Source: an uncultured Acidimicrobiales bacterium (GTDB lineage Bacteria; Actinomycetota; Acidimicrobiia; Acidimicrobiales; CAVXTF01). From it: a stretch of 64,000 nucleotides of DNA. The notes under the pieces are model-generated. The model ran no database searches and had not been told where the DNA came from. It saw only the letters and a program-made list of their open reading frames with translations. The stretch is from assembly GCA_963764615.1 (NCBI GenBank), contig CAVXTF010000002.1:1746745-1810744 (forward strand), written 5' to 3'. A program made the translations under genes and the position numbers. This document shows positions 12,246 through 51,134 of the stretch, one piece after another. How positions within the stretch are numbered: position 1 is the first letter of the stretch; each line of letters begins with the position of its first letter.

Positions 12246-12998
12246 GTGCCGGTGAAGACCCTTATCCTCTGTGGAGGCAAAGGAACGCGTGCGTACCCCC
12301 ACAGCCTCGAGATGCCGAAGCCGCTCATGACGGTTGGCGACGAGCCGATCCTCCGTCACCTGATGCGCATCTATGCGAGGCAGGGTTTCACCGAGTTCGT
12401 CCTCGCGGGCGGATACAGGGCCGACCTTCTGGTCACGTTCGCAGAGGGCCTTCCCCCCGACTGGAGCGCCCAGGTCATCGACACAGGGGAAGACACCGGG
12501 ACAGCCGGACGGATCGCGCGCTGCCGCGCGGCTCTCGGTGGGACCTTCTTCGCCACCTACGGGGACGGCCTCGCGTCGATCGACCTCAGGTCGCTTCTCG
12601 ACTTCCACCGGTCCCACCCGGGTTCTGTGACCGTCACTACAGTGCCGCTCCCCTCTCCTTACGGCACGCTCGTGTGGGACGAGAATGGGCGCGTCTCGTC
12701 CTTCGTAGAGAAGCCCAGCCTGCCCGATCACTGGATCAACGCGGGGTTCTTCGTAATGGACGAACGGGCCTTCGACAACTGGCAGGGAGACGACCTCGAG
12801 CGAGACGTTCTCCCGACGCTCGCCGAGGCGGGCGAGCTGTACGTGCACAGGCACGCCGGTTTCTGGCGCTCGATGGACACCTACAAAGACGCATTGGAGC
12901 TGAGTGCCCTTTGCCGGGAAGGAGAAGGCCCGTGGACGACCTCGCAGGCGTCCGAGTCCTCGTCACAGGTGCCACTGGCTTCATCGGATCGCATCTGA
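12246..12998 (+). CDS. rfbF: glucose-1-phosphate cytidylyltransferase-like nucleotidyltransferase
   Basis: 250 aa with LILCGGKGTRAYP...MPKPLM, DTGEDTGTAGRI, YGDGLASIDL, WINAGFFVM and GFWRSMDTYKD...GEGPW. This is an RfbF-like pattern along the whole length. The 3' end overlaps the next gene by 67 nt. Confidence 0.7.
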   Translation: MPVKTLILCGGKGTRAYPHSLEMPKPLMTVGDEPILRHLMRIYARQGFTEFVLAGGYRADLLVTFAEGLPPDWSAQVIDTGEDTGTAGRIARCRAALGGTFFATYGDGLASIDLRSLLDFHRSHPGSVTVTTVPLPSPYGTLVWDENGRVSSFVEKPSLPDHWINAGFFVMDERAFDNWQGDDLERDVLPTLAEAGELYVHRHAGFWRSMDTYKDALELSALCREGEGPWTTSQASESSSQVPLASSDRI

Positions 12999-13906
12999 CC
13001 CGGCGCCTCGTAGACGAGGCGGCCGAGGTCCACGCGCTCACGAGCACCGTCTCGTCGGTGTACCCGGTACGCCTCGTAGAACTGAGGGACCGGATCACCC
13101 TACACGGGGGGAACCTCAACGACGGCGGGGCCATGGACTCGGTGGTCGGGCGCGTCCGGCCTCAGGTCGTGTTCCATCTGGGTGCGTACACACATGTCGG
13201 CAAGTCGTGGGACCGCGTGGACGAGTGCATCCAGACCAACATCCACGGAACCGTGAACCTGCTCCAGTCGCTCGCCCGCGAAGGTTACGACCGCTTCGTC
13301 TACACGAGCACGAGCGAGGTGTACGGAGACGTCGCCGTTCCGTTCAGAGAGGACGCTCTCGTAGACCCGCTTTCCCCTTATGCCGTGAGCAAGTACGCAG
13401 GAGAGCGCTTCTGCCGAATGCTTCGCCGGGGGCGGTCCTGGCCGATCGTGGTGGTCAGGCCGTTCAACGCCTACGGTCCCGCTCAGAGCCCCGACAGGGT
13501 GGTCCCCGAGATAATCGTGAAGGCTCTCCGAAACGAGCGGCTCCTCATGACAGAGGGTCTCCAGACGCGGGAGTTCAACTACGTGGAGGACCTGATCGAC
13601 GGGTTCATCCGCTCCGCCACGGTCCCGGGGATAGAGGGCGAGGTGTTCAACATCGGCGGCGGCGAGGAGGTCTCCATGAGGAGTCTCGCCACGACCATCC
13701 TCGAACTGATGGGCGATCCGATCTCACCGGAGTTCGGCGCGCTTCCCAATCGGCCGACTGAGATCTGGTCCATGCGAAGTGACGTCACCAAGGCTCGTGA
13801 CGTCCTCGGTCTCGAGCCTGCCCGGCCGCTCAAAGAGGGTCTCGAGCGCACCATTTCGTGGTACCGGCAGGAGCTTCAGAAGTCCGGCTCCCTGTTCTCG
13901 GCCTGA
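12932..13906 (+). CDS. NAD-dependent epimerase/dehydratase family protein (extended SDR)
   Basis: Motifs VLVTGATGFIGSHL, TSTSEVYGD and YAVSK (YxxxK). A GGAGAAGG Shine-Dalgarno sequence precedes the GTG at 12932. The longest ORF (from 12674) has an implausible N-terminus. Confidence 0.75.
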   Translation: MDDLAGVRVLVTGATGFIGSHLTRRLVDEAAEVHALTSTVSSVYPVRLVELRDRITLHGGNLNDGGAMDSVVGRVRPQVVFHLGAYTHVGKSWDRVDECIQTNIHGTVNLLQSLAREGYDRFVYTSTSEVYGDVAVPFREDALVDPLSPYAVSKYAGERFCRMLRRGRSWPIVVVRPFNAYGPAQSPDRVVPEIIVKALRNERLLMTEGLQTREFNYVEDLIDGFIRSATVPGIEGEVFNIGGGEEVSMRSLATTILELMGDPISPEFGALPNRPTEIWSMRSDVTKARDVLGLEPARPLKEGLERTISWYRQELQKSGSLFSA

Positions 13907-13926
13907 GGGCGGACGAACCGGTATCC

Positions 13927-15975
13927 ATGGGGGGCCCCGGGATTGCCCAGGTGGCAGGCACGACCGGAGCCGTGACGGAAACTTCCGCACCGGGCGGAGA
14001 ACGCGGCGCCGAAGAGGCTCCCGGCCGCCACGGTATTGAGCGAACCGCCGCGTCCGGTTCGCGCAGAGGGCGGTCCGCGGCGGGTGTCGCGGTCGCGTTC
14101 GCCGGCTACCTGGCTCTTGCGATCGGCCTTTGGTGGAACGTGTGGTCGACGCACCCGACGAGCGTCACGAGCTGCGCCTGCGGTGACGCCTCGTTGTTCA
14201 TCTGGTTCTTGGAGTGGCCGGCGTACGCGATCGCACACGGGCACGACCCGTTCTATTCCACGGCGCTGTTCCACCCGTCTGGCATAAACCTGCTTTCGAA
14301 CACGAGCGTTCTCGCGGTCGGTGTCGTGCTCGCCCCTGTCACCTGGTTGTTCGGTCCGGTCGCCACCATGAACGTTGCGTCGACTCTCGGCCCTGCGCTG
14401 TCTGCGCTAGCCATGTTCTGGCTACTTAGGCGCTGGGTGAATTGGACGCCCGCCGCTTTCGTCGGCGGCCTCCTGTTCGGGTTCTCGCCCTTCGTGTTCG
14501 TAAATGTGGTGGGCGGGCACCTGATGACGACGTTCCTGGCCGTCGTGCCACTCATCGTCGCCTGCCTCGACGAGATCTTCGTCCGCCAGACGAAGAGACC
14601 GATGCGAGTGGGGATCACTCTCGGACTGCTCGTGACGCTCCAGTTCTTCTTGAGCACCGAGGTGCTCGTCATCTGTCTGATCTGTGGCGTAGTCGCATTG
14701 CCCCTGCTCTTGCTCCATGCGGCCGCGAGTGATCCGGGCACGATCACTCACCGGGCGTCCTACGCATTGCGCGCCCTGGCCGTGGCCGCGTCTGTATCGA
14801 TCATCCTGCTCGCCTATCCCTTGTGGTTCGCCCTCGACGGCCCGGCACACTTGGCGGGACTCATATGGCCCACACTTCCCCCGGGGGCGGGCGGGATTGC
14901 GCTCGGAAACGTCTGGCATGTTGGCTACCAGACGGCATTGCGGAATCTGATGCAGATCGTCGGAGGCTACGAGGGACCGGCGTTGCCCCAGGCCGAATTC
15001 CTCGGTTTGGGAGTTCTGATCGTCGTAGCTCTTGGGATCCTTGGGTGGAGACGCGATCGTCGCCTCTGGTTCTTCTGCGGCCTCGGGGTTCTGACGACGA
15101 TTCTCTCTCTGGGAGTGAACACGCACTTCTGGGTTCCGTGGAACCTCCTCGCGCACGTCCCGCTCGTGAGGAGCATCGTCCCCTCGCGCTTCTTCCTTGC
15201 GACGACCCTTTGCGCCGCCGCCGCCGTATCCATCGTCGTGGACCGCGCGCACAGCAGTGTTGCCGATCGGGGCCGCCGGATCGCCGGGTCGCATTCGGTT
15301 CGGGCATCGAGAGCGTGGCCGGTTTCGATTCTGGCGTCGGTGGTCGCCCTCGGGATCTCGGCGGTTGCCGTCGCTCCTGTCACTGCGGCTGTCGCGACGA
15401 ACGTGCCCATCACCACGAGGGACGTGACGCTCCCGCGATGGTTCGCGGAGGCCGGCCCTGGTCTTGCAGCGGGTCAGGTGGTGCTGGCCTACCCCGCGCC
15501 GTTCACGCTCGTTCAGTCCTCGATGGCCTGGCAGGCCGTGGACCTGCTCCGGTTCGCGCTCGTCGGTGGCGGGGGGCCGGGGGGCGTGCCGGAGCGAGCA
15601 GGCAAGGAGCGAGCGGGATTCGAGGTGGTGAGCGCCATGTCGTTCTCGCTCGACGGCCCCCCTTCGCCCAGTCCCGCGAACATCGAAGCGGTGAGGGAGG
15701 CGCTCGCCGGCTGGCGCGTGACGATCGTTGTCGTGCCAGACCCCGCGGGGCTGCCCCGCTACGACCAGGGCACCGACCCCGCGTCCGCACTCGGCCTGTT
15801 CACGGTTTCCATCGGCCGCCCGCCTCGGTTCGTGGACGACGCTTGGGTCTGGACCCGCGTGCAGGCGCCAGGCGCGAGCCTCGAGATATCCACATCGGCG
15901 TTCGATCGCTGCACGAACGCAACCCTTTCCGCCGTGACATCGTGTGTCATCGCCTCGTCCGGGCCCGGCAACTGA
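13927..15975 (+). CDS. large polytopic membrane protein, GT-C-like glycosyltransferase candidate (paralog A)
   Basis: About 683 aa from the ATG at 13927. It has many hydrophobic helices, a first-loop CGDASLFIWFLEWPAYAIAHGH motif, and a ~180-aa C-terminal soluble domain. The family is not named; the function is inferred from architecture only. Confidence 0.55.
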   Translation: MGGPGIAQVAGTTGAVTETSAPGGERGAEEAPGRHGIERTAASGSRRGRSAAGVAVAFAGYLALAIGLWWNVWSTHPTSVTSCACGDASLFIWFLEWPAYAIAHGHDPFYSTALFHPSGINLLSNTSVLAVGVVLAPVTWLFGPVATMNVASTLGPALSALAMFWLLRRWVNWTPAAFVGGLLFGFSPFVFVNVVGGHLMTTFLAVVPLIVACLDEIFVRQTKRPMRVGITLGLLVTLQFFLSTEVLVICLICGVVALPLLLLHAAASDPGTITHRASYALRALAVAASVSIILLAYPLWFALDGPAHLAGLIWPTLPPGAGGIALGNVWHVGYQTALRNLMQIVGGYEGPALPQAEFLGLGVLIVVALGILGWRRDRRLWFFCGLGVLTTILSLGVNTHFWVPWNLLAHVPLVRSIVPSRFFLATTLCAAAAVSIVVDRAHSSVADRGRRIAGSHSVRASRAWPVSILASVVALGISAVAVAPVTAAVATNVPITTRDVTLPRWFAEAGPGLAAGQVVLAYPAPFTLVQSSMAWQAVDLLRFALVGGGGPGGVPERAGKERAGFEVVSAMSFSLDGPPSPSPANIEAVREALAGWRVTIVVVPDPAGLPRYDQGTDPASALGLFTVSIGRPPRFVDDAWVWTRVQAPGASLEISTSAFDRCTNATLSAVTSCVIASSGPGN

Positions 15976-18082
15976 GCTGGTTGTGACCGATCAGGACACG
16001 CTTGCGGCGACCCCCGACCAGGAGGATGCGTCCGACGGCGAGCCGGTTTCCTCGCCCGAGCCCGATGGCGCGGCTAAGGGGGTTCTCAGGTCGGCCGCCA
16101 CCTTGGGTGTGGCGTTCGCGTTCTATCTGGGACTTTCCGTGCTGCTCTGGTGGGGGGCCTGGTCCAGCCACCCGACCACTGTCACCACATGTGCCTGCAA
16201 CGACCCGTCTCTATTCGTCTGGTTCCTCGAATGGCCCGCGTACGCAATCGCGCACGGCCACAACCTGTTCTATTCGACGTCTCTTTTTCACCCGCAAGGG
16301 ATAAACCTGCTTTCGAACACCGGAGTTCTCTCTCTCGGAGTGCCACTGGCACCAGTCACGTGGTTGTTCGGCCCTGTCGCGACATTGAACGTCGCTTCGA
16401 CTCTCGGTCCTGCCTTGTCGGCTCTTGCCATGTTCTGGCTCCTGCGACGTTTCGTCAGCTGGGCCCCTGCCGCGTTCGCCGGCGGGCTCGTGTTCGGTTT
16501 TTCGCCCTTCGCCTTCGACAACCTGGCGGTGGCTCACCTGAACACCGAGCTGCTCGCTCTCGTGCCCCTCACGATCGGCTGCCTCGACGAGTTGTGCATG
16601 CGACAGTCAAGACGATGGCCCCTCGTCGGAGCGGCCCTCGGACTGCTGGTGACGGTTCAGTTCTTCTTGAGCACGGAGATGCTCGTCATCATCGGGTTCT
16701 GCGCCGTCGCCGGTCTCGTGATCCTTGTTCTCTATGCTGCAGTCTTCAGGCGGACAGAGCTGCTCACCAAGGCGCCACATGCGCTCGGCGGCTTTGCGGT
16801 CGCCATCACCGTGGCTGTGGTCCTGCTCAGCTATCCGGTCTGGTTCGCTCTCGACGGTCCGGCACACCTGTCGGGCCTGGTGTGGCCCATCGCCAAACCC
16901 GGAATTGCAGGAATCGACCTCGGCAACCTCTGGCACCTGCGATTCCTGGGTGCACAAGCAGTGCATCTCTTCGCCGGGTACGAAGGCCCGGCGCTACCTC
17001 AGGCCGAATATCTGGGAGTCGGCCTCCTAGGCGTGCTCGGCGCGGGCCTCGTTTCGTATCGACGCGATCTCAGACTCTGGTTCTTCGGCGCGGTCGGCCT
17101 GGTGAGCGTCGCGCTCTCCCTTCCCGTCACGAGCAGCTACTGGGTGCCCTGGCGCGTGCTCGAACACGTTCCCCTCGTTCAGAACGTCGCGGCAGCGAGA
17201 TTTTTCGGAATGACCACTGCGTGCGCCGCCATCATGCTCGGAGTAATCGTCGACCGCACACATGCGACCGCGTACGGCGTCATCGCCCGCCTGATCAACC
17301 GGTTCCGAAGTGCACGCACGTCTTCTCACCGCGCCGTCGACGCGGTGAGCTCGGCTTTGCGATCGGGCGTGGGTCGAGCTAGCGATCGTCGCCGCCTTAC
17401 AGGAGTTGCCGGCATCGTTGGCGGTGGCGCCGCGGCGGCAGTTGCACTGGCCGTCGCTGCTGTGGCGTTAGTCCCCATGGGATCCGCGGTCGCCGAGAAC
17501 GTCCCACTCACGACACAAGGCGTAGCCCTGCCGAAGTGGTTCGCCAACGACGGAGCCCATCTGGCGGCGGGACAAGTCGTACTTGCATACCCCCCGCCGG
17601 TTACCGGCGGCTCAGCGATGACATGGCAGGCGATAGACCTTCTTCGTTTCGCAATGGCGACCGGAGGAGGACCAGAGAGCATCCCGGCACGCGCTGGAAA
17701 AGAGCGAGCAGGCCTCGACGTCATCACGCAGGCTTCTTTGATCCTGTCACCTCCACCCCCGGCGACGACGTCCAACGTCGAGGCAGTACGTCAGGCATTG
17801 TCGGGATGGGGGGTGACGATCGTCGTCGTGCCGGACCCCGCAGGTCTCGAGCCTCACTATTCCCGCGCTGCGAGTACCGCGTGGGCGCTCGGGATGTTCA
17901 CCCTGGCGATAGGACGCCCGCCCAGGTTCGAAGACGATGCGTGGGTCTGGACGGGAGTGCGGTCGCCCAGTCGTCGCATGGCGATAACAGCTCGAGCTTT
18001 CGCAACCTGCACGGGTGCGGGTCTTTCGGTCACGGCAGACCCTCTGGGTGTGCCGGACTGCGTACTCCGGCCGGCCGCCTGA
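15944..18082 (+). CDS. large polytopic membrane protein, GT-C-like glycosyltransferase candidate (paralog B)
   Basis: 712-aa ORF collinear with paralog A (shared blocks FLEWPAYAIAHGH, GINLLSNT, NVASTLGPALSALAMFWLLRR, YEGPALPQAE, VTIVVVPDPAGL). The start is either 15944 or the GTG at 15983. Confidence 0.55.
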   Translation: MSSPRPGPATELVVTDQDTLAATPDQEDASDGEPVSSPEPDGAAKGVLRSAATLGVAFAFYLGLSVLLWWGAWSSHPTTVTTCACNDPSLFVWFLEWPAYAIAHGHNLFYSTSLFHPQGINLLSNTGVLSLGVPLAPVTWLFGPVATLNVASTLGPALSALAMFWLLRRFVSWAPAAFAGGLVFGFSPFAFDNLAVAHLNTELLALVPLTIGCLDELCMRQSRRWPLVGAALGLLVTVQFFLSTEMLVIIGFCAVAGLVILVLYAAVFRRTELLTKAPHALGGFAVAITVAVVLLSYPVWFALDGPAHLSGLVWPIAKPGIAGIDLGNLWHLRFLGAQAVHLFAGYEGPALPQAEYLGVGLLGVLGAGLVSYRRDLRLWFFGAVGLVSVALSLPVTSSYWVPWRVLEHVPLVQNVAAARFFGMTTACAAIMLGVIVDRTHATAYGVIARLINRFRSARTSSHRAVDAVSSALRSGVGRASDRRRLTGVAGIVGGGAAAAVALAVAAVALVPMGSAVAENVPLTTQGVALPKWFANDGAHLAAGQVVLAYPPPVTGGSAMTWQAIDLLRFAMATGGGPESIPARAGKERAGLDVITQASLILSPPPPATTSNVEAVRQALSGWGVTIVVVPDPAGLEPHYSRAASTAWALGMFTLAIGRPPRFEDDAWVWTGVRSPSRRMAITARAFATCTGAGLSVTADPLGVPDCVLRPAA

Positions 18083-20671
18083 CATGAGCACCACTGCGCA
18101 TCCGCGCTTTCGGATCAGGTCCTCCCGAGGCGTCTGACCTCTTCCGTCGAGCTTCCGTGGAGCGTCGCCGGCGGAATACGACGACCATCACCGACCCCGC
18201 CAGCACTGCGGTCGAGACGAGGCTAAGGATCCAGCCATCGGTGAAGCTCGAGGGGTCGTAGGTGAACACGATGCGGTCGTCACCGGAAGGGACGTGGACC
18301 CCGCGAAGCAGGTAGTCGACCTCGTCGATCTGCGCCGGCCTGCCGTTCACGGTCACCGTCCAGCCTGGGTAATAGGTGTCGGACAGCACGAGCTCAGACG
18401 ACCGGTTGGCGTGCGCGTCGATGGTCACCTGCTCAGCTCCGTAATCGGTGATGCGAGCGGAACCGGGTGATTGGGACGGATCGCCTGATTGTGCCAGCCA
18501 CGGAAGTGATTGGCCTGCGATCAGCGACCGACTTGGGTCGAAGCCGGCTGCGCCGATGGCTGTCAGTTGCGCCTGGTCTCCCTTCACCACCTCTTCGCTA
18601 CCGACCAACCATGTGCGTGGCAGCGCGTTGTCGTTTGCGTAAATGGTGGCGTCGGGCCCGTTGTAGGCGATATGAACGCCCGGCATCTGTAGCGGGATCT
18701 CTCCCTTCTGCTCGAGAAGGTCCGTCACTCCGAGCAGGGACAGGATCCTCGAGCGCGACGGGTCTCAGAACCAGTTGGAGCACCGGCACTGCAGCGGTGT
18801 CCAAGGGCAGCAGCGGGGTGGGCGGCCCGACGTACCGGCTCCACATCTCACCGAAGCGCCCGATCACGGGAAGGTCGTACCCACGTGCGTCGTACAGGCC
18901 GAAGTCGATGTTGACGTCCGGGGGGAGTGGATTGGCTCCCACATAGGGCGCTACCGCAACGAAACGAGCCGGACGCTGCTGCTGGAGATACCTGATCGCC
19001 GGTGTCGCGGGCTGGACCGCGTGAGAGTCGGGGATCGCGGGGTTCTCCCCCATGCCCGCCTGGAAGAGGTCCCCGACCACGAGAAGAATTGCGAGGACAG
19101 CAAAGATGCCCGGTCGCAGCCTACGTCCGAGGCGCAGATACACCAGGGCACAGGCGGCGCCGGCGATCGTCACCCAGATCACGACAGCGGTCATATGGAC
19201 GATCGGCCCGTCGTGAGCCGTCCCGGCCAAAGGTCGTCGCGCGAATGCCCAAGCGATGTCCACCGCACGGCCGAGGTAACGCCACGAGGTCGCCCGGGTC
19301 GCGACGACGATGATCACCGGCAGCACCAGGAGCGAACCAGGTATCGCTGCCGCCGCGACGAAGCAACGCCGGTCGAAGAGCCGTTCCATCAGATCATCGA
19401 GCCCCCATCCTGCGAGCAGCGCGACACAGAGCAGATAGAGGATCGTCATACGGCTCAGATACGTGGCGTCGAAGCCGGGCAACCGGCCGACGATGCCGAA
19501 CACGGGCTGGATCCCGAGGACGAGAAGTACGCAGAACAGGCCGAACAGCGCGATGACGATCCGTTCGACCCGAGCGCGCAAGAGCGCGACCAGGCCGAGC
19601 ATCAAAGGCAGGGCGCCCGCGTAGAAGGCGGTCTCGATCTCGAAGCTGTTGGGTACGTCGTTGAAGTAAGTCGGCAGCAGCGAGGCAAAGAAGAACTTCG
19701 GCTGGACATAGACGATGCTGCGCGGGCGTGACGTAAGGTCCGAAGAGTTCCTCAGCAGCTCGACGAACGGGAGGATCGCGACACCCGCGACCGCAGTGCC
19801 GACGACGATCGCGAGCACGAAACAGATGACCGCCGCGCGACACGATCTGAACAGCGCACCCAGCCTCGAACTTCCACGGCGACCGGCCTCACCGCGTCGC
19901 CCGAACGCCGCCGCCGGGCTCCTGCAAGACACGAAGCACGAAGTAGCAGGCGACAGCGAACAACGCCTGGAAGCTGGATTCCGGATGGCCGCCAAAGAAC
20001 TGAAGAGCGACGACGCCGCCCAGCCCGGCGACGGAAAGCACCCCTGGGCGACGGATCAACCTCTCGGTCGCGAACAGCATCCAAGGGATGAGAGGGAACA
20101 CATTGGCGAGGGGCCACGGCAGCCACACGATAAGGAACAGGCCGAACCCGTAGACGGTCCCGCACAAGAAGGCTCCCGCGAACCTCATCTTCAACGCCCT
20201 CGCCAGCAAGAAGGCGCCCATCGCCGCGACGACCACCTTCATCACCGCGATGACGCTCAACGACCACCAGAAAGGAAGCACGTACGCGGGCAAGCTGAAG
20301 GGCGAGAAGATCGCCGACTGCATGTCGCCCAGATACGGCGTTCCACCCATGATGTAGGGGTCCCAAAGCGGGATGTGCGGTAGCTGAGACCTTGTGTACT
20401 GCAAGAACGGCTCGAAGACAGTCGTCGGATCGACGAGCTGGATGTTGGACCCGACCAGCAGAGGGTGTCTGCTCCAGACGAAAAGGCCGCTCGGCATCGA
20501 GGTGTTCCACGGGGCGGTGCTCCACAGGTAGTCGGAGGCCGACGTCGTGTGTCCAGGTAGCAGCCCGGGCCCGAAGAAGATCACGCCGAGCAGCGTGTAG
20601 AGCACCAATGCAACAACGACCGGATGGGTCTGTGCCCAGCTCAGCAGGCCAGTGGGGACCTTCCGGCGCAT
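18030..20671 (-). pseudogene. YfhO-family membrane protein split over three frames (two frameshifts, or sequencing errors)
   Basis: Track ORFs 19889..20671, 18598..19995 and 18030..18728 are the N-terminal, middle and C-terminal thirds of a single ~880-aa YfhO-like protein. Supporting motifs are PLWDPYIMGGTPYLGD in the N-terminal third and YYPGWTVTVNGRPA in the C-terminal third. Frame changes fall near 19890 and near 18745. Confidence 0.7.
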
Positions 20672-20722
20672 AAGTCGCGCAAGGCTAGCGACGCGTCAAC
20701 AGTCAAGTACATTCACCAGCCT

Positions 20723-23870: not shown

Positions 23871-24000
23871 GCGAGGAGTCTAGGGACGCGAGCACCTTCG
23901 GGATCCAATGGGGGGCTGAGAGTCACTTCCGTGGCGGCTTGCAGCCCGGGGACCGCGAGAAAAGCAGCCCCGATTCTGACTCGCCCGCTAGTGTCGCTCC

Positions 24001-29647: not shown

Positions 29648-29667
29648 ACTACGAAAGAGGAGTCCCT

Positions 29668-33468: not shown

Positions 33469-33489
33469 CGGTCGATCTCAAAAGCTATC

Positions 33490-34107: not shown

Positions 34108-34117
34108 CGCCGAGGAC

Positions 34118-40864: not shown

Positions 40865-40913
40865 CGCCGTCCTTCGGCCCCCGTGGAATCCGTCCGGACG
40901 ATCGCTGGCGCGA

Positions 40914-42257: not shown

Positions 42258-42292
42258 CGCGGCCTCATTGCCTCTTAGGCCTTCTCAGCTGC

Positions 42293-43867: not shown

Positions 43868-44078
43868 CAATGCCAAAAACTCCCACTCGGTCGCCGGTCG
43901 CCCAGTAGCGGATCTGGCGGTCCGTGCCGGACGGCACCAGGCGCCCTCGATCCGGACGGCACCAAGCGTTGCCCTCTGCTCGTCCGTCTTCACCTCGCGT
44001 GGCGGAACCCCGGGGGGAGGATACCGGTTCCCGGCTCTCCGGCCCAGGAGGTACGCCTGTCCCAAGGCACGTACAGCC

Positions 44079-45221
44079 CTACGGCACGTACAGCCCGGTG
44101 AAGGCGAGGAGCGAGTAACAAGCGAGCCCAGCAGCTGCAAGCACGAGGACCGCGGTCTCAGCGCGTGGTGAGCGGTCGAGCGAGGCGCCAGCGATCACGA
44201 GCGGGAACGCCGAAAGGGCATAGCGCTCGAACGAATCCAGGTTCGAAGCGGTCAGGGCCACCGCAAGGACGAGGAAAGCGAACCCCGCGTAGGACGCGGG
44301 CAGCCTCACCGCTGCGACGACAGCGAGGAGCACGGCGAGGATCACCCACGGAAGGTGGAACGCGGTGCCGAGATGACTTCCGTGGACCAGGAGGCTCGCG
44401 TCGTGACCGAGCGTTGAGAACGGGTCGGCGAGTGCTCCCCTGTGCCCTGCCTCCTCTTGGATGCGAAGCGGGGCGAACGCGTCGCCGTAGCGCCATCCGC
44501 ACCATGCAAGGAACGCGCCGCAACCGAGCGGTCCTCCGATCACGGACACGAGAGCCGCGGTGCGGCTCGACCGGGTCGAGCGCGCCGACATGGTCGACCG
44601 AGCAGGATGGGTATGGCTCCAGGCTCTCGCGCACTCGATCGCGGCAGGAACCACCAGGAGCGCGCCGAGCGGCCGCGCCAGGCCCGCGAGAACCGACAGT
44701 GCGGCTGCCGCCCACCAACGGCGGCGGCGCATGCACAAGAACGCGCCGACACAGAGCATCACGAACGTCGACTCGGCGTAGCCCATGATGAAGACGAAAG
44801 CCGGAGGGGCCAGGCAGAGCAGCCATGCCGCCCGGCGCGCGAACTGCGCGTCGCCGGTCTCGCGTCTCACGAGGCTCGCGAGCAGCGCGGCTGCTGCCAG
44901 GGCACAGAGGTTGGAGACGACCACGAGTGCAACCCCGACCGATACCCCCGGCACCTCGGCCAGGGCGCGGGCGACTGCCGGGACCAAAGGAAAGAAGCGA
45001 AGAGAGGCGGGGCCGGCGCCCGCGTAACCGTGCTTGGCGATCGCTTCGTACCAGCCGGCGTCCCAACCGAGCAGACCCTGGCGGACCCTCGATGCGGACT
45101 GAGCGGACAGGCGGCCGTCACTCGTGAGCTCGCGGGCGACAGCAAGCGATGCGAGCACCACTGCCCGCGCCAACAGCCAAGGCGGGGCCGCGGTCCGCAC
45201 GGCCCAGCGCGCCCCGAGCAT
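44079..45221 (-). CDS. PIG-V-like mannosyltransferase family membrane protein (GT-C candidate)
   Basis: 380 aa, polytopic. GWDAGWYEAIAKHGYAGAGPASLRFFPLVPAVARAL matches the WDxxxYxxIAxxGY...FFPLxP signature of the Mannosyl_trans2 family. Confidence 0.55.
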   Translation of the reverse strand: MLGARWAVRTAAPPWLLARAVVLASLAVARELTSDGRLSAQSASRVRQGLLGWDAGWYEAIAKHGYAGAGPASLRFFPLVPAVARALAEVPGVSVGVALVVVSNLCALAAAALLASLVRRETGDAQFARRAAWLLCLAPPAFVFIMGYAESTFVMLCVGAFLCMRRRRWWAAAALSVLAGLARPLGALLVVPAAIECARAWSHTHPARSTMSARSTRSSRTAALVSVIGGPLGCGAFLAWCGWRYGDAFAPLRIQEEAGHRGALADPFSTLGHDASLLVHGSHLGTAFHLPWVILAVLLAVVAAVRLPASYAGFAFLVLAVALTASNLDSFERYALSAFPLVIAGASLDRSPRAETAVLVLAAAGLACYSLLAFTGLYVP

Positions 45222-45514
45222 GGGGCATCGTAGCTACGCGCGCCCGCGATCCACGAGGATCGGGCGCCCGGCACAGAACTCCCCGCTCCGGGCAGGGCTG
45301 CGGTCTACGATGACCGGCGCGTCGACGGCAATGGCGCTACCGTCACGCCGAGGACCGGCACGAGAACCCAGGGGGAATGCCCGTGCGACAAATGGCGGTT
45401 GTAGGCGGTGAACCGGGTCTGGCCCGGCGCCTCCACAATCCCGTGGCCAACCCGGGGTCCGCGGCGCTCAAGTGCCCGACCACCTACAGTGCCTGAGGCC
45501 GAAGAGGACGACCG

Positions 45515-46459
45515 GTGGGCCGCTACCTGCTAACTCGGCTGGTCCAGCTGGTCGTGATCGTCTGGGTCATCTCGATCCTCACCTTTTTGCTCGTCCATCT
45601 GCTGCCCGGCAATCCGATCGACACGATCCTCGGACCCAACCAGACCGTCCAGAACCGCGCGGCGCTGCTGAAGCAACTGGGATTGAACAAACCTCTTCTC
45701 GACCAGTACTGGATCTGGTTGAAGAACGTCTTGCACGGCAACCTAGGCGAGTCGTTCCTCAACCATCAGAACGTGACGACCATCATCGGCAACGCTTTCC
45801 CATTCGACATCGAGCTGATCCTCTACTCGCAGATCATCTCGTTTGTCATCGCGATTCCTCTCGCGCTCGTGTCTTCGCGACGGCCCAACCGGCTCTTCGA
45901 CCGTCTCGCGGGCATGTCCACTTTCGGCATGCTCGCCATGCCGGCATTCGTGATCGGCCCTATCCTCGCCCTGGTCTTCGCAGTGAAGATCCACCTCTTC
46001 CCCGCCACGGGGGCGCCCGCTTTCACCTCCGCTCCCCTGACGAACATCCACAACATGACCCTGCCGTCGATCGCTCTCGCGTTCGGGTCCATAGCGGTCT
46101 ATTACCGTTTGCTGCGTGGCGACCTCATAAGCACCCTGCAAGAGGACTTCATCACCATGGCGAAGTCGAAGGGCCTGTCGACCCGCTACATAATGGTGAG
46201 GCACGCGCTACGGCCTTCTTCGTTCTCGATGCTCGCCTCTGCGGGCCTCAACATCGGCACGCTCATCACCGGCGCATTCGTCGTCGAATACCTGTTCGGC
46301 ATTAACGGTATTGGCTTCCAACTCGTCAACTCGATCAACCAGCGCGACTATTTGGCTGTTCAGGGCATGGCGCTCGTCGTCGCCCTGGTCTACGTCGTAG
46401 TGAACTTCTTCGTGAATTTCCTCTACACGGTCCTGGACCCGAGGATCGCCCGTGCCTGA
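45515..46459 (+). CDS. ABC transporter permease, Opp/Dpp/Nik family (OppB-like)
   Basis: 314 aa with N-terminus MGRYLLTRLVQLVVIVW, six TM segments and a BPD-transporter signature region (ITMAKSKGLSTRYIMVRHALR). Confidence 0.85.
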   Translation: MGRYLLTRLVQLVVIVWVISILTFLLVHLLPGNPIDTILGPNQTVQNRAALLKQLGLNKPLLDQYWIWLKNVLHGNLGESFLNHQNVTTIIGNAFPFDIELILYSQIISFVIAIPLALVSSRRPNRLFDRLAGMSTFGMLAMPAFVIGPILALVFAVKIHLFPATGAPAFTSAPLTNIHNMTLPSIALAFGSIAVYYRLLRGDLISTLQEDFITMAKSKGLSTRYIMVRHALRPSSFSMLASAGLNIGTLITGAFVVEYLFGINGIGFQLVNSINQRDYLAVQGMALVVALVYVVVNFFVNFLYTVLDPRIARA

Positions 46460-47387
46460 CGTCATCGGATCGGCCACTACGAGCGAATCGCTCATGGAGC
46501 GCCCGCCTCTGCTTCCCGGTGGTTCGCCAATGACGGTCCTCGAAGTCGAGACGGAGTTCAGGGCGCACAAGAAGCTCGGGGTGTTCTTCTGGATCTGCGT
46601 GGGCTGGGTCTCTTTCATAATCCTGCTCGCCATCTTTGCGAACGTTCTGCCGTTGCAGTCGCCGACGGCCATCGGCGCACTCCCGTTCGCCGGCCCGAGC
46701 TCGGGCCACTTGCTCGGCACCGACGACCTCGGCCGCGACCTGCTATCGCGGATCATCTTCGGCTCTCAGCCGACCCTCACGATCTGCTTCGCCTCGATAG
46801 CCATCGGGCTCATCATCGGCGGAACCGCCGGCATGCTCGCCGCGTACACCGGCAAGATCGTCGACAACATCGCCAATGCGATCGCTTTCATCATCATCTC
46901 GTTCCCACCGCTGCTCGCGATCCTCGTGATCATCGCCTTCTGGGAGCCTCCGACCGTCTTGAAGCTCACGCTTATATTCGCGGTCGCTTCGATCCCTCAG
47001 CTCTTCGTCGTACTCCGAGCCACCTCCCTCGCTTTCGTGAATCGCGACTTTGTGACCGCGGCGCGCACCATGGGGGCGAAGACTCCCCGGATCCTCGTGA
47101 GGGAGATCCTCCCGAACATCGCACCCGCAGGATTGTCGTACGGACTCATCGGGGTGGCCTCCGTCGCAATCATCGAGGGCTCCCTCGCTTTCCTCGGGCT
47201 TTCCATCCCCGAGCCGCATCCCTCGGTAGGGAACATCATCTCGGAAGGGATTCCATATCTTCAGAACAACAGCGACGTCTGGATCACCGTGTTCCCCTGT
47301 CTGTACCTGTTCTTCCTGCTCATCTCGATCAGCTACATAGGAGACCGTCTCCGTTCGAGGTTCGACGTGCGCGAAGGAAACGTGTGA
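46452..47387 (+). CDS. ABC transporter permease, Opp/Dpp/Nik family (OppC-like)
   Basis: 311 aa with LGTDDLGRDLLSRIIFG and FVTAARTMGAKTPRILVREILPN motifs. It overlaps the previous gene by 8 nt. Confidence 0.85.
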   Translation: MPDVIGSATTSESLMERPPLLPGGSPMTVLEVETEFRAHKKLGVFFWICVGWVSFIILLAIFANVLPLQSPTAIGALPFAGPSSGHLLGTDDLGRDLLSRIIFGSQPTLTICFASIAIGLIIGGTAGMLAAYTGKIVDNIANAIAFIIISFPPLLAILVIIAFWEPPTVLKLTLIFAVASIPQLFVVLRATSLAFVNRDFVTAARTMGAKTPRILVREILPNIAPAGLSYGLIGVASVAIIEGSLAFLGLSIPEPHPSVGNIISEGIPYLQNNSDVWITVFPCLYLFFLLISISYIGDRLRSRFDVREGNV

Positions 47388-48634
47388 TCGGCACGAGGAA
47401 GAGACGTCTCACATTCCCCGCCGCACAGGAGCTCGAAGGCCCCATCTTGCAGGTCGACGACCTTCGCACGTCGTTCGTCACCGACCGCGGGCTCGTGCGT
47501 GCCGTCGACGGCGTGTCGTTCGAGCTCGAAAGGGGCCAGACCCTCGGCGTGGTCGGTGAGTCCGGGTCGGGCAAAACGGTTCTGTCGAGGTCGATCATGG
47601 GACTACTCCCCCCGATGCGCGTCCACCACTCAGGGACGGTCCGATTCTCGGGACACGAGATCTCGAGCCTGTCTTCGACGGAGCTACGCGACGTCTGGGG
47701 CACCCAGATCGCGATGGTGTTCCAGGATCCGATGACGGCTCTCAACCCGGTCCTCAAGGTGGAGAGGCAGCTAACAGAGGGCTTACGCAAAAGGCTCGGG
47801 CTCGACCGCAAGGCTGCTCACGACACGGCGGTAGCCCTGCTCGAGTCTGTCGGCATCCCCGACCCGCTCAGGCGGCTTCGCGTCTACCCCCACGAGTTGT
47901 CGGGCGGGATGCGCCAGCGCGTCATGATCGCGATCGCACTCGCGTGCGGCCCGAAGCTGCTCCTTGCGGACGAGCCCACCACCGGTCTCGACGTCACGGT
48001 GCAGGCGCAGATCCTCGACCTTTTGTCAGACCAGCAACGCGAGCGCTCCATGGCGATGGTGCTCGTGACCCACGACCTCGGCGTCGTGGCGAACAGAACC
48101 GACGAGATCGTCGTCATGTACGCGGGACGCGTGGTGGAGCAGGCACCCACGCGCGAGCTGTTCGAGCACACCCGCATGCCGTACACGGAGGCTCTGCTCC
48201 TGTCGATCCCCCGGCTCACCGACGCGAGCCACTCCAGGCTCAGGTCAATCCCCGGACGGCCGCCCGACCTTGCGAACACCCCCAAGGGCTGCAAGTTCGC
48301 CCCGCGCTGCCCGTATGCCCAACCTCGTTGTGAGGAAGAAGAGCCGCCTCTCAGGAATGCCGGCCCCGGCCACCTGTTCAGGTGCTGGTTCCCCGTCGGG
48401 TCCCCTGAAGGCGAGCAGGCGTACGCGAGCAACCTGCGGGCAGGGCTTCCGGCCGCAGTGGTGTTCAGCGCCGGCAACGGATCCGAGCGCAAGTTCGAGC
48501 CCGCTCAAGTCGTCGGTTCGCAATCGGCAGTCTCCGCCCCTCAGGCCGGAGCGTTGCCGGTGGGTGATGGCGCCGAGGACGGCTCGGGCGGGGATTCGTC
48601 CCCGCCGCTTTATGACGCGTCTGGAGGGACCTGA
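47384..48634 (+). CDS. ABC transporter ATP-binding protein (OppD-like) with low-complexity tail
   Basis: GESGSGKT Walker A, LSGGMRQR signature, LLLADEPTTGLD Walker B and a C-terminal CKFAPRCPYAQPRC oligopeptide-type motif. Confidence 0.9.
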   Translation: MIGTRKRRLTFPAAQELEGPILQVDDLRTSFVTDRGLVRAVDGVSFELERGQTLGVVGESGSGKTVLSRSIMGLLPPMRVHHSGTVRFSGHEISSLSSTELRDVWGTQIAMVFQDPMTALNPVLKVERQLTEGLRKRLGLDRKAAHDTAVALLESVGIPDPLRRLRVYPHELSGGMRQRVMIAIALACGPKLLLADEPTTGLDVTVQAQILDLLSDQQRERSMAMVLVTHDLGVVANRTDEIVVMYAGRVVEQAPTRELFEHTRMPYTEALLLSIPRLTDASHSRLRSIPGRPPDLANTPKGCKFAPRCPYAQPRCEEEEPPLRNAGPGHLFRCWFPVGSPEGEQAYASNLRAGLPAAVVFSAGNGSERKFEPAQVVGSQSAVSAPQAGALPVGDGAEDGSGGDSSPPLYDASGGT

Positions 48635-49686
48635 TGGCCGGCAGCGGGACGGCCCACCTGCGCGGCAGCGACACGCTGCTACGGGTCGAGAACCTGGTTG
48701 TGGAATTCGGCCACGGGCGCCGGCGCGTCCATGCCGTGTCCGACGTGAGCTTCGACGTGGCCGCCGGCGAGACCCTCGGGCTCGTGGGCGAGTCCGGGTG
48801 CGGCAAGTCGACGACCGGCCGTGCCGTGGCGATGGTGCACCCACCCACCTCCGGGGCGATCCGTCTCGACGGCACGGACCTTACGACGCTCAACCAAGGC
48901 GAGCTCAGGCGCAGGCGCACGAAGGTCCAGCTCATCTTCCAGGACCCGATCTCCTCGCTCAACCCCAGGCGCAAGATCCGCGACGTGGTCGCAGAGCCGC
49001 TCAGCATCTGGGGCTTAGGCACCCGTGCCGAGCGAAGGCAGAAGGCCGCCGCCATGCTCGAGGCCGTGGGCATCGACCCGGAAGCGGCGGCCGACCGGCA
49101 TTCGGTCGAGTTCTCAGGTGGGCAGTGCCAACGGGTGAGCATCGCTCGCGCGCTCATGCTCGAGCCCGAACTGCTCGTGTGCGACGAACCGGTCTCGGCT
49201 CTCGACGTGTCCGTGCAAGCTCAGATCCTCAACCTGCTCGAGGACCTGAAGGTCCGTATGGGCCTGACGATGATCTTCATCGCCCACGACCTTGCAGTCG
49301 TGAAGCACGTGAGCGACCGGGTAGCGGTCATGTACCTGGGAAAGCTCTGCGAGCTCGCACCTCCCGACGTCCTGTATCACCGGCCGGCGCACCCCTACAC
49401 GGAGGCGTTGCTCGCCTCGATCCCAGAACCTGATCCCACAGTCGGCGCCCACAAGGTGCCCAAACGCCTCGCAGGCGACCTTCCCTCGCCGATCGACCCC
49501 CCGTCCGGCTGCAGGTTCCGCACGCGTTGCCCGTACGCGCAGCCACGCTGCGCCGAGGAAGAGCCCCAGATAAGAGAGCTCACCCCCGGGCAGTTCGTGG
49601 CGTGTCACTTCCCGATCGGAGTACCGAGCACCTCTTCAGCAGGACCTGCAGCCTCGGAGGACCGTAGTGCCGTCGGCTCGACCTAA
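48634..49686 (+). CDS. ABC transporter ATP-binding protein (OppF-like)
   Basis: GESGCGKST, FSGGQCQRVSIARAL, LLVCDEPVSALD and CRFRTRCPYAQPRC motifs. TGATG start/stop overlap with the previous gene. Confidence 0.9.
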   Translation: MAGSGTAHLRGSDTLLRVENLVVEFGHGRRRVHAVSDVSFDVAAGETLGLVGESGCGKSTTGRAVAMVHPPTSGAIRLDGTDLTTLNQGELRRRRTKVQLIFQDPISSLNPRRKIRDVVAEPLSIWGLGTRAERRQKAAAMLEAVGIDPEAAADRHSVEFSGGQCQRVSIARALMLEPELLVCDEPVSALDVSVQAQILNLLEDLKVRMGLTMIFIAHDLAVVKHVSDRVAVMYLGKLCELAPPDVLYHRPAHPYTEALLASIPEPDPTVGAHKVPKRLAGDLPSPIDPPSGCRFRTRCPYAQPRCAEEEPQIRELTPGQFVACHFPIGVPSTSSAGPAASEDRSAVGST

Positions 49687-51134
49687 TTCGACCCGGTAGT
49701 GGCGTACACCGAAGACTGAGAAGTCCCTCCGGGTCGACGTCGCCCGAGCCTCTTTTTCCACCGCGACGCCATGGCTTCACCAGCCGCCACGATCCCGGCG
49801 CTTGCGAGCACGACCAGCGCCACCTCGAACTCCGCCCGGAAGCGCACCTGCCCATAGCCCGTCGCTGCGATCACGGTCACCGCCACAGCCACGACGAGCA
49901 ACGGCCAGACCTTCACCGACCGCCTCCTCAACACGACGACGCCGGCCACCGCGAACGGCAGGAGCAGGTAATAGGAAAGCAGGCCGCCGAGTGAGGCGGG
50001 GATCGGCCGTCCCTCGTTCACGTCGGTGTCCACCATCTGCAGGGGCTCGTACAGGTCCCAGACCCTGCCCACCCGCGCCGCCGCGACGACCGGCAGCCTG
50101 CTCGCGTGGTGCTCCAGATAGTGAAGGCCGGCGTCGAACTGCCTTGCGGACTCGACCGACTGCTCCTGAGCGGGAGGGACGTCGATTGAGCAAGGGAGAC
50201 TCCAGCTGCCGAGTCCCGGTCCGTAGTACGTCTGTGGGCAGTTGGCCCCGAGGAGCACCGGCCCCTCCCCGGTCGAGAGGAAAGTCGGATCGCGAAAGGA
50301 GTCCAAATTTCGACCCACCCAGGGAGAGACGACAAGGAGCGCTGCCAGGAGACTCACGGCTGTTAGGACGAGCCGTCGACCCCATGGGATCCCCCTCAGG
50401 CCCAGCGCCGCCGGCACGAGGAGAAGAGGCAGGAGCAAGATGAGTTCGGCCCGGGTGAGGATCTCGAGCCCGCATCCGATGCCGAGGAGAACGCCATTGG
50501 CGATCCCCGGCGAGTCCATGAAGCGGTACGCGGCGAGGAGGATCAAGACCATGAGCAGCATGCTGACCGTCTCGGACATGACGATCCCGTTCGGGATCCA
50601 CATGTTGGGGTACAGCGCTGCGACTACCGCTGCGACGATTCCTACACGGGTTCCTGCCAGCCGGCGTCCGAGCAAGCCCACGCACAGCACGACCGCCGAC
50701 CCCAAGACAGCCATCGTCAGGCGCTGCGGAGTCTCACCCGGTGGCAGGCCGAACAAGTAGGTGGCGGGTGTGAGCACGAACGCGGTCATCGGCGGATGCG
50801 CAGCATCGGGGCCGTGTCCGAAGATCACCGGAAAGAAATGGCCAGAAGCGAGAGTGAGGGCCTGCAGCTCGTAGTACGCGGAGTCGTAGAGCTTGTAGGG
50901 CTCGTTGCGCGTCACCACGAGCACGTAAAGCACGCGAAACACGAGCGCGCCCCCTGTGACCACCCCGAGCCACAGGCCGAACCGGGAGTGTGCCTGACGC
51001 CGGATGTCGGAGGCCCCGCGTGGAGGGTCGGTCTGCGCTTCGAGCAGCAACGGCGAGCCTGGCACAGGCGCAATCATTGTCGTTCGGTCGATCCAGCCGT
51101 TGGTCCGAGCGTCTTGGGCCGGATTTGCTTGCAT
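49683..51134 (-). CDS. ArnT/PMT-like (GT39/GT83-type) polytopic membrane glycosyltransferase candidate
   Basis: 483 aa with more than 10 TM segments. The first-loop region VTRNEPYKLYDSAYYELQALTLASGHFF resembles the phospholipid-carrier-dependent glycosyltransferase layout. Confidence 0.5.
   Translation of the reverse strand: MQANPAQDARTNGWIDRTTMIAPVPGSPLLLEAQTDPPRGASDIRRQAHSRFGLWLGVVTGGALVFRVLYVLVVTRNEPYKLYDSAYYELQALTLASGHFFPVIFGHGPDAAHPPMTAFVLTPATYLFGLPPGETPQRLTMAVLGSAVVLCVGLLGRRLAGTRVGIVAAVVAALYPNMWIPNGIVMSETVSMLLMVLILLAAYRFMDSPGIANGVLLGIGCGLEILTRAELILLLPLLLVPAALGLRGIPWGRRLVLTAVSLLAALLVVSPWVGRNLDSFRDPTFLSTGEGPVLLGANCPQTYYGPGLGSWSLPCSIDVPPAQEQSVESARQFDAGLHYLEHHASRLPVVAAARVGRVWDLYEPLQMVDTDVNEGRPIPASLGGLLSYYLLLPFAVAGVVVLRRRSVKVWPLLVVAVAVTVIAATGYGQVRFRAEFEVALVVLASAGIVAAGEAMASRWKKRLGRRRPGGTSQSSVYATTGSN

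Follow-up and report, generated by a model that had tools for sequence, protein, structure and literature searches.

A conserved AftD-like and UDP-galactopyranose mutase-like gene cassette and an inserted block of predicted GT-C glycosyltransferases, probably for an envelope glycopolymer of Acidimicrobiales

What product could call for seven large polytopic membrane proteins within about 37 kb of one chromosome? The question is raised by a 64-kb stretch of the metagenome-assembled genome of an uncultured soil Acidimicrobiales bacterium (contig CAVXTF010000002.1; hereafter the window, G+C ~66%), for which the original prediction, made from the letters alone, proposed a single uncharacterized envelope glycan system built around seven candidate glycosyltransferases (GTs) of the GT-C class. 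We hold with moderate confidence that the region is machinery, in two functionally linked parts, for an envelope glycopolymer that GT-C enzymes complete on the outer side of the membrane. The product is most likely a cell-wall sugar polymer, probably with galactofuranose. As a gene map the span falls into three parts, namely a core cassette at 34.1-45.2 kb, a lineage-specific inserted block at 12.2-33.7 kb, and a separate PMT_2 gene. The seven proteins are listed below with their transmembrane (TM) segments and open reading frames (ORFs); Pfam and NCBIfam scans covered the 42 larger ORFs of the window. GTCa and GTCb are our names for two families, L numbers denote related loci and assemblies, and P numbers denote homologous proteins.

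13927-15975, plus strand: GTCa copy 1, membrane protein of predicted GT-C fold with 10 TM segments; no Pfam or NCBIfam model
15983-18082 (ORF 15944-18082), plus strand: GTCa copy 2, tandem paralog of copy 1
18030-20671, minus strand: YfhO-family GT-C, in three frames in the window sequence; the repaired protein matches PF09586 at 48 bits (cut-off 28.5)
24001-26154, plus strand: GTCb, membrane protein of predicted GT-C fold with a C-terminal lectin-like beta-sandwich; no Pfam or NCBIfam model
35050-39684, plus strand: AftD-like protein of 1544 aa; PF11847 at 291 bits (cut-off 26), with F5_F8_type_C and CBM_AftD domains
44079-45221, minus strand: PIG-V-like (GT76-like) GT-C with 7 TM segments; PF04188 at 33.3 bits (cut-off 22.4); motif 'WDAGWYEAIAKHGY' after TM1
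49683-51077 (ORF to 51134), minus strand: PMT_2 (ArnT/PMT-like) GT-C with 9 TM segments; PF13231 at 46.8 bits (cut-off 26.1)

Family matches and modeled folds mark all seven as putative GT-C enzymes. Each candidate is present where it was first proposed, four being assigned by Pfam families of the GT-C clan, two (GTCa copy 1 and GTCb) by structure comparison, and GTCa copy 2 by paralogy; the profile, TM-topology and Foldseek checks suggested at the time placed none of the seven outside GT-C. Seven GT-C genes among ~30 would be far above random placement, with P ~1e-8 if GT-C genes make up ~1% of all genes. By a Kyte-Doolittle scan, the six proteins that read intact have 7-13 TM segments apiece, and the three YfhO fragments 4 + 7 + 1. 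A conserved acidic residue lies just after the first TM helix in GTCa, GTCb, the PMT_2 protein and the PIG-V-like protein, its loop position being taken from sequence or models; it follows TM1 directly in the PMT_2 ('YDSAYYE') and PIG-V-like ('WDAGWYE') proteins.

The AftD-like protein has 8 N-terminal and 5 C-terminal TM segments, with periplasmic F5/8-C and CBM domains and a C-terminal TM bundle, and aligns with Mycobacterium abscessus AftD (6w98) at 124 bits over residues 37-1034. Among the residues essential in the M. abscessus enzyme, a single pairwise phmmer alignment finds K39, E251 and D474 kept, with K361 aligned to Arg and D41 to Tyr; on this ground we refrain from calling the protein an arabinofuranosyltransferase, although that is what its automated NCBI name, 'alpha-(1->3)-arabinofuranosyltransferase family protein', says. 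The PMT_2 protein, of 464-483 aa, matches the generic PMT_2 domain only, which argues against its being Pmt: with the Pmt equivalog NF058602 (530 positions, cut-off 800) it reaches just 23.7 bits. Neither the PMT_2 nor the PIG-V-like protein had a match when its sequence was searched against the PDB. Intact YfhO-like homologs are 790-850 aa long and carry PF09586, which in one of them (P0246) scores 58.6 bits.

GTCa and GTCb required structure prediction. The GTCa copies are 52% identical over 710 aa, in keeping with the tandem paralogy originally noticed, and their DUF2079 and STT3 matches all fall below threshold; GTCb yields zero Pfam or NCBIfam match. Unnamed homologs number more than 1100 for GTCa and 274 for GTCb, with listed source names that are all Acidimicrobiales or Acidimicrobiia, and bar three exceptions these homologs are without a Pfam domain. 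A profile search of 1.84 billion representatives puts the GTCb family at 3436 representative clusters. AlphaFold2 models of GTCa copy 1 and GTCb, built from 40-sequence alignments, are helical bundles with soluble domains, and we compared them with the PDB by Foldseek. The GTCa copy 1 model (13951-15975) has a mean confidence (pLDDT) of 77.5, and its top 19 PDB matches are all GT-C, the best being AftD 6w98 (E 1.6e-6) and the others DPY19, AftA, PglB, STT3 and ArnT (E 2e-6 to 9e-4). The GTCb model (pLDDT 89, global score pTM 0.89) matches PglB (E 5.8e-6), STT3A, AftA, DPY19 and Pmt4 (E 6e-6 to 8e-4), human and yeast STT3 being among its PDB matches, and its C-terminal beta-sandwich matches LG, CBM40 and galectin folds. 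Both models reach template-modeling scores of only 0.3-0.45, which is what one would expect of membrane proteins with several domains when identity is 10-16%. GTCa has an invariant D79 and a nearly invariant E88 in the loop that follows TM1; in GTCb, D50 is nearly invariant and E71 invariant. A sequence relationship between the two families was considered for GTCa (13858-15975) and rejected, BLASTP finding none and hhalign giving a probability of 0.14%, so that we treat them as separate.

The AftD-like and PIG-V-like genes belong to the core cassette, whose remaining members are:

34118-34951, minus strand: class I S-adenosylmethionine (SAM) methyltransferase; Methyltransf_11 at 62.5 bits; divergent from the AftD-like gene
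39608-40864, minus strand: cytoplasmic GT4 glycosyltransferase; PF00534 at 122 bits
40914-42257, minus strand: candidate MOP/PST (Wzx-like) flippase with 12 TM segments; PF01943 at 21 bits, under the cut-off of 28.2
42293-43867, minus strand: homolog of eukaryotic-type UDP-galactopyranose mutase (UGM), a flavoenzyme; best PDB matches the Aspergillus fumigatus and Trypanosoma cruzi UGMs, E ~3e-21

Scanning a genome collection with the AftD-like protein gave 80 loci, all from metagenome-assembled genomes, with soil, bog and peat among the sample names; 71 titles name Acidimicrobiales or Acidimicrobiaceae, and 9 only 'Actinomycetes', 'Actinomycetota bacterium' or 'uncultured Actinomycetota bacterium'. 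We counted synteny by tblastn with the window proteins in the 52 loci that have full 10-kb flanks, in which AftD is 44-53% identical. Gene order is fixed: uvrB, coaE and the methyltransferase on the minus strand, the AftD-like gene on the plus strand, then GT4, MOP, UGM-like and PIG-V-like genes on the minus strand, followed by Opp genes or rpsA-polA. The flanking uvrB and coaE were found in 50 and 51 of the 52, the methyltransferase in 41 (at the same position), GT4 in 46, MOP in 39, the UGM-like gene in 50 and the PIG-V-like gene in 43. Because this arrangement is fixed across the 52 loci, the methyltransferase/AftD/GT4/MOP/UGM/PIG-V cassette is ancestral across the sampled Acidimicrobiales genomes, and the neighborhood check proposed at the outset came out, for Acidimicrobiales, in favor of conservation (39-51 of 52 loci). 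Between the MOP and UGM-like genes, 19 of the 52 loci hold an extra GT-C gene (GTCa family in 14, PMT_2-like in 5), and L076 has a YfhO-like gene after AftD. Scanning the extra genes inserted in the cassettes of other loci for a donor synthase or arabinose pathway gave M16 peptidases, ankyrin, BNR, EF-G and aldehyde dehydrogenase proteins, the sole relevant gene being one YfhO-like GT-C. In one related genome a gene between uvrB and coaE, beside the cassette (L033:6002-8335), encodes 777 aa that include three cell-wall-binding 2 (CWB2) domains. Surface proteins of Clostridioides difficile are attached to a secondary wall polysaccharide through CWB2 domains, and by analogy this neighbor hints that the cassette product may be an anchor polymer for surface proteins.

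The UGM homolog is the gene most informative about the sugar, and the original gene list overlooked it. In a phmmer alignment to 3ute/4u8l it conserves H63, R182, W315, Y317, R327, Y453 and N457 of the A. fumigatus enzyme, residues that bind flavin, diphosphate and galactose, W315 being specific to the eukaryotic type (PMC3322874). The ORF (42293-44140) is ~90-120 codons too long: its 5' part is unconserved in 66 homologs and has flat G+C by codon position, and an independent gene call starts at 43867 and gives 524 aa.

Upstream of coaE, the window lineage has a 21.5-kb block (12.2-33.7 kb) inserted after uvrB, with sugar-nucleotide genes, a dolichyl-phosphate-sugar-synthase-like GT2, methyltransferases and four of the GT-C genes (both GTCa copies, YfhO-like and GTCb). 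Its further members are:

12252-12998, plus strand: sugar-1-phosphate nucleotidylyltransferase, glucose-1-phosphate cytidylyltransferase-like; PF00483 at 80.7 bits; gene call from L089
12932-13906, plus strand: extended short-chain dehydrogenase/reductase (SDR), nucleoside diphosphate (NDP)-hexose 4,6-dehydratase/epimerase-like; PF01370 at 194 bits, PF16363 at 192 bits
20748-21470, plus strand: class I SAM methyltransferase, frameshifted; methyltransferase models match the C-terminal half only
21467-22258, plus strand: GT2 (GT-A fold), candidate polyprenyl-phosphate sugar synthase; PF00535 at 87.8 bits
22182-23870, minus strand: 562-aa protein whose N-terminal 290 aa have no Pfam match, with a C-terminal SAM methyltransferase domain (Methyltransf_23 at 71 bits, residues 302-457)
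31671-33710, minus strand: AT3 and SGNH-like O-acyltransferase; PF01757 at 88.7 bits, with weak DUF459 and SGNH matches

Most of the accessory functions first read from the sequence held up on these scans. The pair called a CDP-glucose synthase and an extended SDR are cytidylyltransferase-like and 4,6-dehydratase-like by Pfam and NCBIfam, with equivalog scores under the cut-offs: TIGR02623 gives 183.5 bits against 300 for the former, and the latter scores 187 bits with a LegB-like and 170 bits with a dTDP-glucose 4,6-dehydratase model. The GT2, described as DPM1/GtrB-like, is indeed closest in the PDB to the Pyrococcus dolichyl-phosphate mannose synthase 5mlz (E 3.8e-16), ArnC and GtrB; its NCBIfam matches are all under cut-off, and the JGI name for cluster members is 'dolichyl-phosphate beta-glucosyltransferase'. 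The GT4 assignment is borne out by PF00534, the Wzx/MOP-like flippase by its topology and a sub-threshold Polysacc_synt-like match, and the several SAM methyltransferase domains come to three in the span, one of them frameshifted. The reported lack of UbiA- or DprE-type genes agrees with our Pfam scan, which found none among the larger window ORFs. O-acyltransferases had been claimed in the plural; one lies in the span, and a second starts only at 62185. For the one in the span, a SucT-like model gives 111 bits, far under its cut-off, and the real start is probably near 33480, since the ORF overlaps coaE.

How far does the block belong with the cassette? It is absent from the uvrB-coaE position in 51 of the 52 loci, the exception being the closest relative (L008), whose locus starts inside the block; a close relative (L006) also carries it. 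Two loci, L006 and L007, again have the nucleotidylyltransferase, SDR, two GTCa copies and YfhO together. L006 continues in window order with the methyltransferase, GT2, 562-aa methyltransferase and GTCb; L007 has GTCb on the upstream side and stops too early to show a GT2. The 562-aa methyltransferase gene adjoins the GT2 also in L006 and L008, and the STAND/BTAD and PPC genes of the block (described below) are not conserved in L006 or L007. Proteins of 2005-2149 aa (P0430, P0431 and P0401) fuse a complete AftD-like enzyme to a C-terminal GTCb domain, and in one case (P0468) an AT3 domain is fused to GTCb. A distant 74%-GC genome (L088; AftD 36-37%, GT4 48% and GTCb 33% identical) has, in order, PMT_2, a 509-aa protein, a GT2 (AglJ/PpgS/ArnC-like) and a methyltransferase, then an AftD-like gene, GT4 and an AftD::GTCb fusion. 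Because of the AftD and AT3 fusions with GTCb and the co-clustering in L088, we consider that block and cassette belong together. The claim of one ~37-kb system stands to the extent that these fusions and this cluster tie its parts together, but as a span it is a cassette, an inserted block, a separate PMT_2 gene and interrupting genes. Two side observations concern L088: at 4552-16450 two AftD-like genes are separated by GT4, the second fused to a GTCb domain (2149 aa), and the fusion protein is present on two contigs.

The kind of system is known, namely polyprenyl-phosphate-dependent extracytoplasmic glycosylation, and we infer its donors (linked to polyprenyl phosphate), acceptor, order of steps and product as follows. 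In the core, the UGM-like mutase would supply a furanose nucleotide sugar, most likely UDP-galactofuranose; GT4 and other cytoplasmic enzymes would assemble a lipid-linked intermediate, the MOP protein would flip it, and outside the membrane the AftD-like and PIG-V-like enzymes would next lengthen the polymer or add branches to it. In the block, the cytidylyltransferase-like enzyme and 4,6-dehydratase-like SDR may produce a modified NDP-hexose, the GT2 may load a sugar onto polyprenyl phosphate, and the two GTCa proteins, the YfhO-like protein and GTCb may transfer this sugar to the polymer, while the methyltransferases and AT3-SGNH acyltransferase would add methyl and acyl decorations. The PMT_2 protein could be a further variable GT-C of the same kind. 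The scheme of GT-A enzyme, flippase and GT-C enzyme is established for wall-polymer glycosylation (PMC8035078; PMC11127046), and our proposal follows the logic of mycobacterial arabinogalactan assembly (bioRxiv 10.1101/2019.12.22.885152). Whole-cell sugars listed for a cultured Acidimicrobiia species are rhamnose, ribose, mannose and galactose, arabinose not being listed (PMC12263773); because rhamnose and galactose are on this list and arabinose is not, a deoxyhexose/galactose polymer fits better than an arabinan. A bolder version would make the cassette the source of the principal secondary wall polysaccharide of Acidimicrobiales, galactofuranose-based and put together by arabinogalactan-like logic from different parts, with outer steps by a non-arabinosyltransferase AftD-like enzyme and GTCa/GTCb and maybe an undescribed lipid-linked furanose or deoxyhexose donor; we regard this as speculative and distinctly unlikely.

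Several observations weigh against our proposal of one linked machinery. The GT2 has no TM segment that we could find, unlike GtrB and CsbB. The window protein is a weak MOP candidate (PF01943 at 21 bits versus 28.2), and its profile found no solved-structure match in the PDB; among its orthologs, 8 of 20 match PF01943 (best E 4.9e-9). The UGM-like protein scores 805 bits with an NCBIfam model (PRK07208.1-4) named just 'hypothetical protein', and 33 versus 304 with the bacterial Glf model TIGR00031; because of that uninformative name and low Glf score, its substrate could be another NDP-sugar. The window contains no phosphoglycosyl transferase that could serve as initiating enzyme, and neither an ORF for a GtrA-type flippase nor an intergenic gap big enough for one. 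No polyprenyl-phosphate-sugar synthase is conserved within the core cassette, over the 52 loci and the sampled extra genes. The neighborhood of GTCb is not conserved in the more distant genomes L002 and L004, and coaE, the STAND/BTAD pair, the PPC-domain protein and an Opp-type ABC transporter break up the span. The YfhO-like gene and one methyltransferase are out of frame, so that their branch could be inactive in the window strain.

A rival reading spreads the seven GT-C genes over several unrelated pathways, gathered in a recombination-tolerant gap of the core genome and with no single product. These could be a protein O-glycosylation by PMT_2 with the GT2 as Ppm1-like donor synthase, a teichoic-acid-like decoration by GT2 and YfhO, and a wall polysaccharide made by the AftD cassette. 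A gathering of this sort would suit a cassette that stands without the block in nearly all loci, a block that sits elsewhere in L007, GTCb neighborhoods that differ in L002 and L004, and housekeeping and regulatory genes that interrupt the span; it would also suit an Opp operon lying between PMT_2 and the cassette, and a PMT_2 gene facing that of a large secreted repeat protein. Yet it leaves the AftD::GTCb and AT3::GTCb fusions unaccounted for, as well as the tight L088 cluster of PMT_2, GT2, methyltransferase, AftD, GT4 and GTCb and the GTCa or PMT_2-like genes that lie within the cassette in 19 loci, and PMT_2 is not an ortholog of actinobacterial Pmt by its score of 23.7 versus 800 bits. 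We judge unrelated pathways to be unlikely. Very unlikely, in our estimate, is that the AftD-like protein is a true D-arabinofuranosyltransferase of an arabinan polymer, drawing on decaprenyl-phospho-arabinose from UbiA/DprE-type genes elsewhere in the genome. The PF11847 score, the automated name, an architecture as in mycobacterial AftD and the retained K39, E251 and D474 all point that way; on the other side are the low identity to mycobacterial AftD, the Tyr and Arg aligned with essential D41 and K361, and a conserved partner that is a UGM homolog and no arabinose-pathway enzyme. Furthermore, UbiA/DprE-type genes were found neither in the larger window ORFs scanned nor in the sampled extra genes of related loci, the whole-cell sugars listed for the cultured class member do not include arabinose, and we found no reported function for AftD homologs outside Corynebacteriales.

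Is the block intact in the window strain? The original prediction treated the YfhO-like gene as one ORF and noticed neither frameshifted gene. The YfhO-like gene (18030-20671, minus strand) in fact lies in three frames, which by tblastn cover homolog residues 1-823, and each of its two breaks (18751 and ~19885-19898) has the look of a +1 insertion. The methyltransferase gene (20748-21470, plus strand) has a +1 insertion as well, at 20947, where a C is added. Three stretches of the window could be compared with independent assemblies of a nearly identical strain, the break at ~19885-19898 lying outside all three:

Window 5983-19424: L089, 99.96% identity, one indel, the window having an extra G at 18751
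Window 20196-22716: L001, 99.56% identity, one indel, the window having an extra C at 20947
Window 36208-52148: L091, 99.95% identity, no indel

The extra G is the second YfhO frameshift, and in L089 the ORF is continuous there; in L001 the methyltransferase is intact (240 aa, with an LDAGCGTG motif), and against L091 the core cassette and PMT_2 are free of indels. That the YfhO-like gene and adjacent methyltransferase are genuine pseudogenes, so that a GT2/YfhO decoration branch is decaying and six active GT-C enzymes are left, is possible but doubtful. The three +1 insertions (18751, ~19890 and 20947) cluster in 2.2 kb, with zero indel differences in the other ~29 kb compared, and hit neighboring genes that plausibly function together, as decay would have it. 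However, two of the three are absent, and the genes intact, from assemblies 99.6-99.96% identical, and for this reason assembly errors are more likely than real decay. All three insertions add a base, and the two placed exactly extend short runs of a single base (GG to GGG at 18751, C to CC at 20947), as is typical of long-read consensus errors. Also at odds with pseudogenes, essential coaE is split in two in a related long-read bin (L006), an ENA assembly whose accession number belongs to a neighboring series. In that bin (ERZ25039470 contig_103856, 17707-19548) the coaE fragments are called as 96 + 145 aa, and two short AT3 fragments (100 + 115 aa) are called ~400 nt apart; these suggest indel errors in assemblies of its accession series. 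The practical warning is that single-base insertions in the long-read assembly of the window disrupt genes that other assemblies have intact.

With our proposal of a linked envelope-glycopolymer machinery as the preferred reading, what is new? The description of the system as uncharacterized still applies, no characterized counterpart having been found in the searchable literature, in which we also found no characterized AftD homologs outside the mycolata and no relevant reports of a bacterial eukaryotic-type UGM. That Acidimicrobiales have AftD homologs is not new, since the alignment in the AftD paper includes one sequence from Ilumatobacter, and automated names already exist for several of the genes. 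New are the conserved cassette pairing an AftD-like gene with a eukaryotic-type UGM homolog, and two large GT-C families without models, together with the fusion and co-clustering evidence that joins them. AftD homologs occur in many actinobacterial orders, and a described function was found for Corynebacteriales only; the cassette, with the UGM homolog, GT4, flippase and PIG-V-like protein as fixed partners, is a testable context for the others. GTCa and GTCb escape all Pfam and NCBIfam models, one of them comprising thousands of sequence clusters and being linked to AftD-like proteins by fusion. Soils and peat are rich in Acidimicrobiales, about whose envelope chemistry almost nothing is known; a conserved wall polymer, if true, would matter for ecology, for recognition by phages and lectins, and for chemotaxonomy.

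By Pfam and NCBIfam, the glycan genes occupy two gaps in a backbone of core genes, one from uvrB to coaE and the other from coaE to rpsA. The left flank has gap, a yvcK-like gene, rapZ, uvrC, nadA, uvrA and uvrB (to 12119), coaE lies mid-window at 33490-34107, and the right flank has rpsA, polA and an ANTAR response regulator from 54763. Within the inserted block, a MalT-like STAND ATPase gene with TPR repeats (26272-28659) overlaps a BTAD-domain ORF (28524-29381) by 136 nt in another frame; the two could be one regulator gene split by another indel, and the pair is missing from related loci. A 597-aa protein (29668-31461), also in the block and not conserved in related loci, has five PPC (pre-peptidase C-terminal) domains and no further recognizable domain. 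Divergent from PMT_2, 51224-53896 encodes 890 aa that have a single TM or signal segment and a weak CSLREA motif at the N-terminus, as well as repeats of the Chlamydia PMP type; this product could be a glycosylated surface protein. In L006, the GTCb homolog is adjoined by a gene for 940 aa that faintly matches this PMP repeat family too. An SDR gene at 53921-54718 was considered as a DprE2-like enzyme and rejected, being a generic member of the glucose-1-dehydrogenase/FabG subfamily. The second AT3 gene (62185-64000), beyond polA and the ANTAR regulator, has a DUF459/SGNH-like C-terminal part and runs past the window end. The backbone of uvrA, uvrB, coaE, rpsA and polA resembles the Rv1629-Rv1638 region of M. 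tuberculosis, where the GT-C mannosyltransferase gene Rv1635c adjoins uvrB, and GT-C genes may have been tied to this chromosomal site since early times.

Four known systems invite comparison. Actinobacterial protein O-mannosylation by Ppm1 and Pmt has parallels in a GT2 that is free of TM segments and resembles polyprenyl-phosphate-mannose synthases, in a GT-C of the PMT_2 family and in large secreted repeat proteins nearby; it differs in that the PMT_2 protein falls far below the Pmt cut-off and is shorter than the 530-position model, and in the 27 kb that separate GT2 from PMT_2. In the pentofuranose three-component system, a polyprenyl-phosphoribose synthase acts with a MATE-family flippase and a GT136 GT-C that carries a CBM (PMC11127046). 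The window likewise has a multi-TM flippase candidate that is not of the GtrA type (here Polysacc_synt/PST-like) and a CBM-bearing GT-C, and extracytoplasmic furanose addition is plausible here; unlike that system, it has no donor synthase of the phosphoribosyltransferase type, the furanose source would be the UGM-like mutase acting on a nucleotide sugar, and the GT-C families are others.

The three-component systems GtrA/B/V, CsbB-GtcA-YfhO and ArnC-ArnEF-ArnT load a sugar on polyprenyl phosphate, flip it and transfer it to a wall polymer outside (PMC8035078). Here, too, a GtrB/ArnC/DPM1-related GT2 lies ~0.8 kb from a YfhO-family GT-C, with one methyltransferase gene between and further GT-C enzymes nearby, whereas the window has no GtrA-type flippase, a GT2 without C-terminal TM helices, four to seven GT-C genes rather than one, NDP-sugar genes of the block's own, and three methyltransferases.

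In mycobacterial and corynebacterial arabinogalactan and lipoarabinomannan synthesis, Glf, GlfT1/2 and export of a lipid-linked galactan are followed by AftA-D and EmbA-C acting with decaprenyl-phospho-arabinose. To our knowledge, neither mycolic acids nor arabinan are known from Acidimicrobiia. The window has a eukaryotic-type mutase instead of the bacterial Glf, a GT4 instead of the GT2 GlfT, and a MOP export candidate instead of an ABC transporter; its scanned ORFs include no UbiA or DprE genes and no Emb proteins, and the essential D41 of AftD is not conserved. What it shares with these pathways is a GT-C of the AftD family that carries carbohydrate-binding modules on the periplasmic side and has a TM bundle at its C-terminus, a flavoenzyme of the galactopyranose mutase type in the same unit, a cytoplasmic glycosyltransferase and export step followed by several GT-C enzymes outside the membrane, an AT3 acyltransferase similar to SucT, and a chromosomal site near uvrB, coaE, rpsA and polA.

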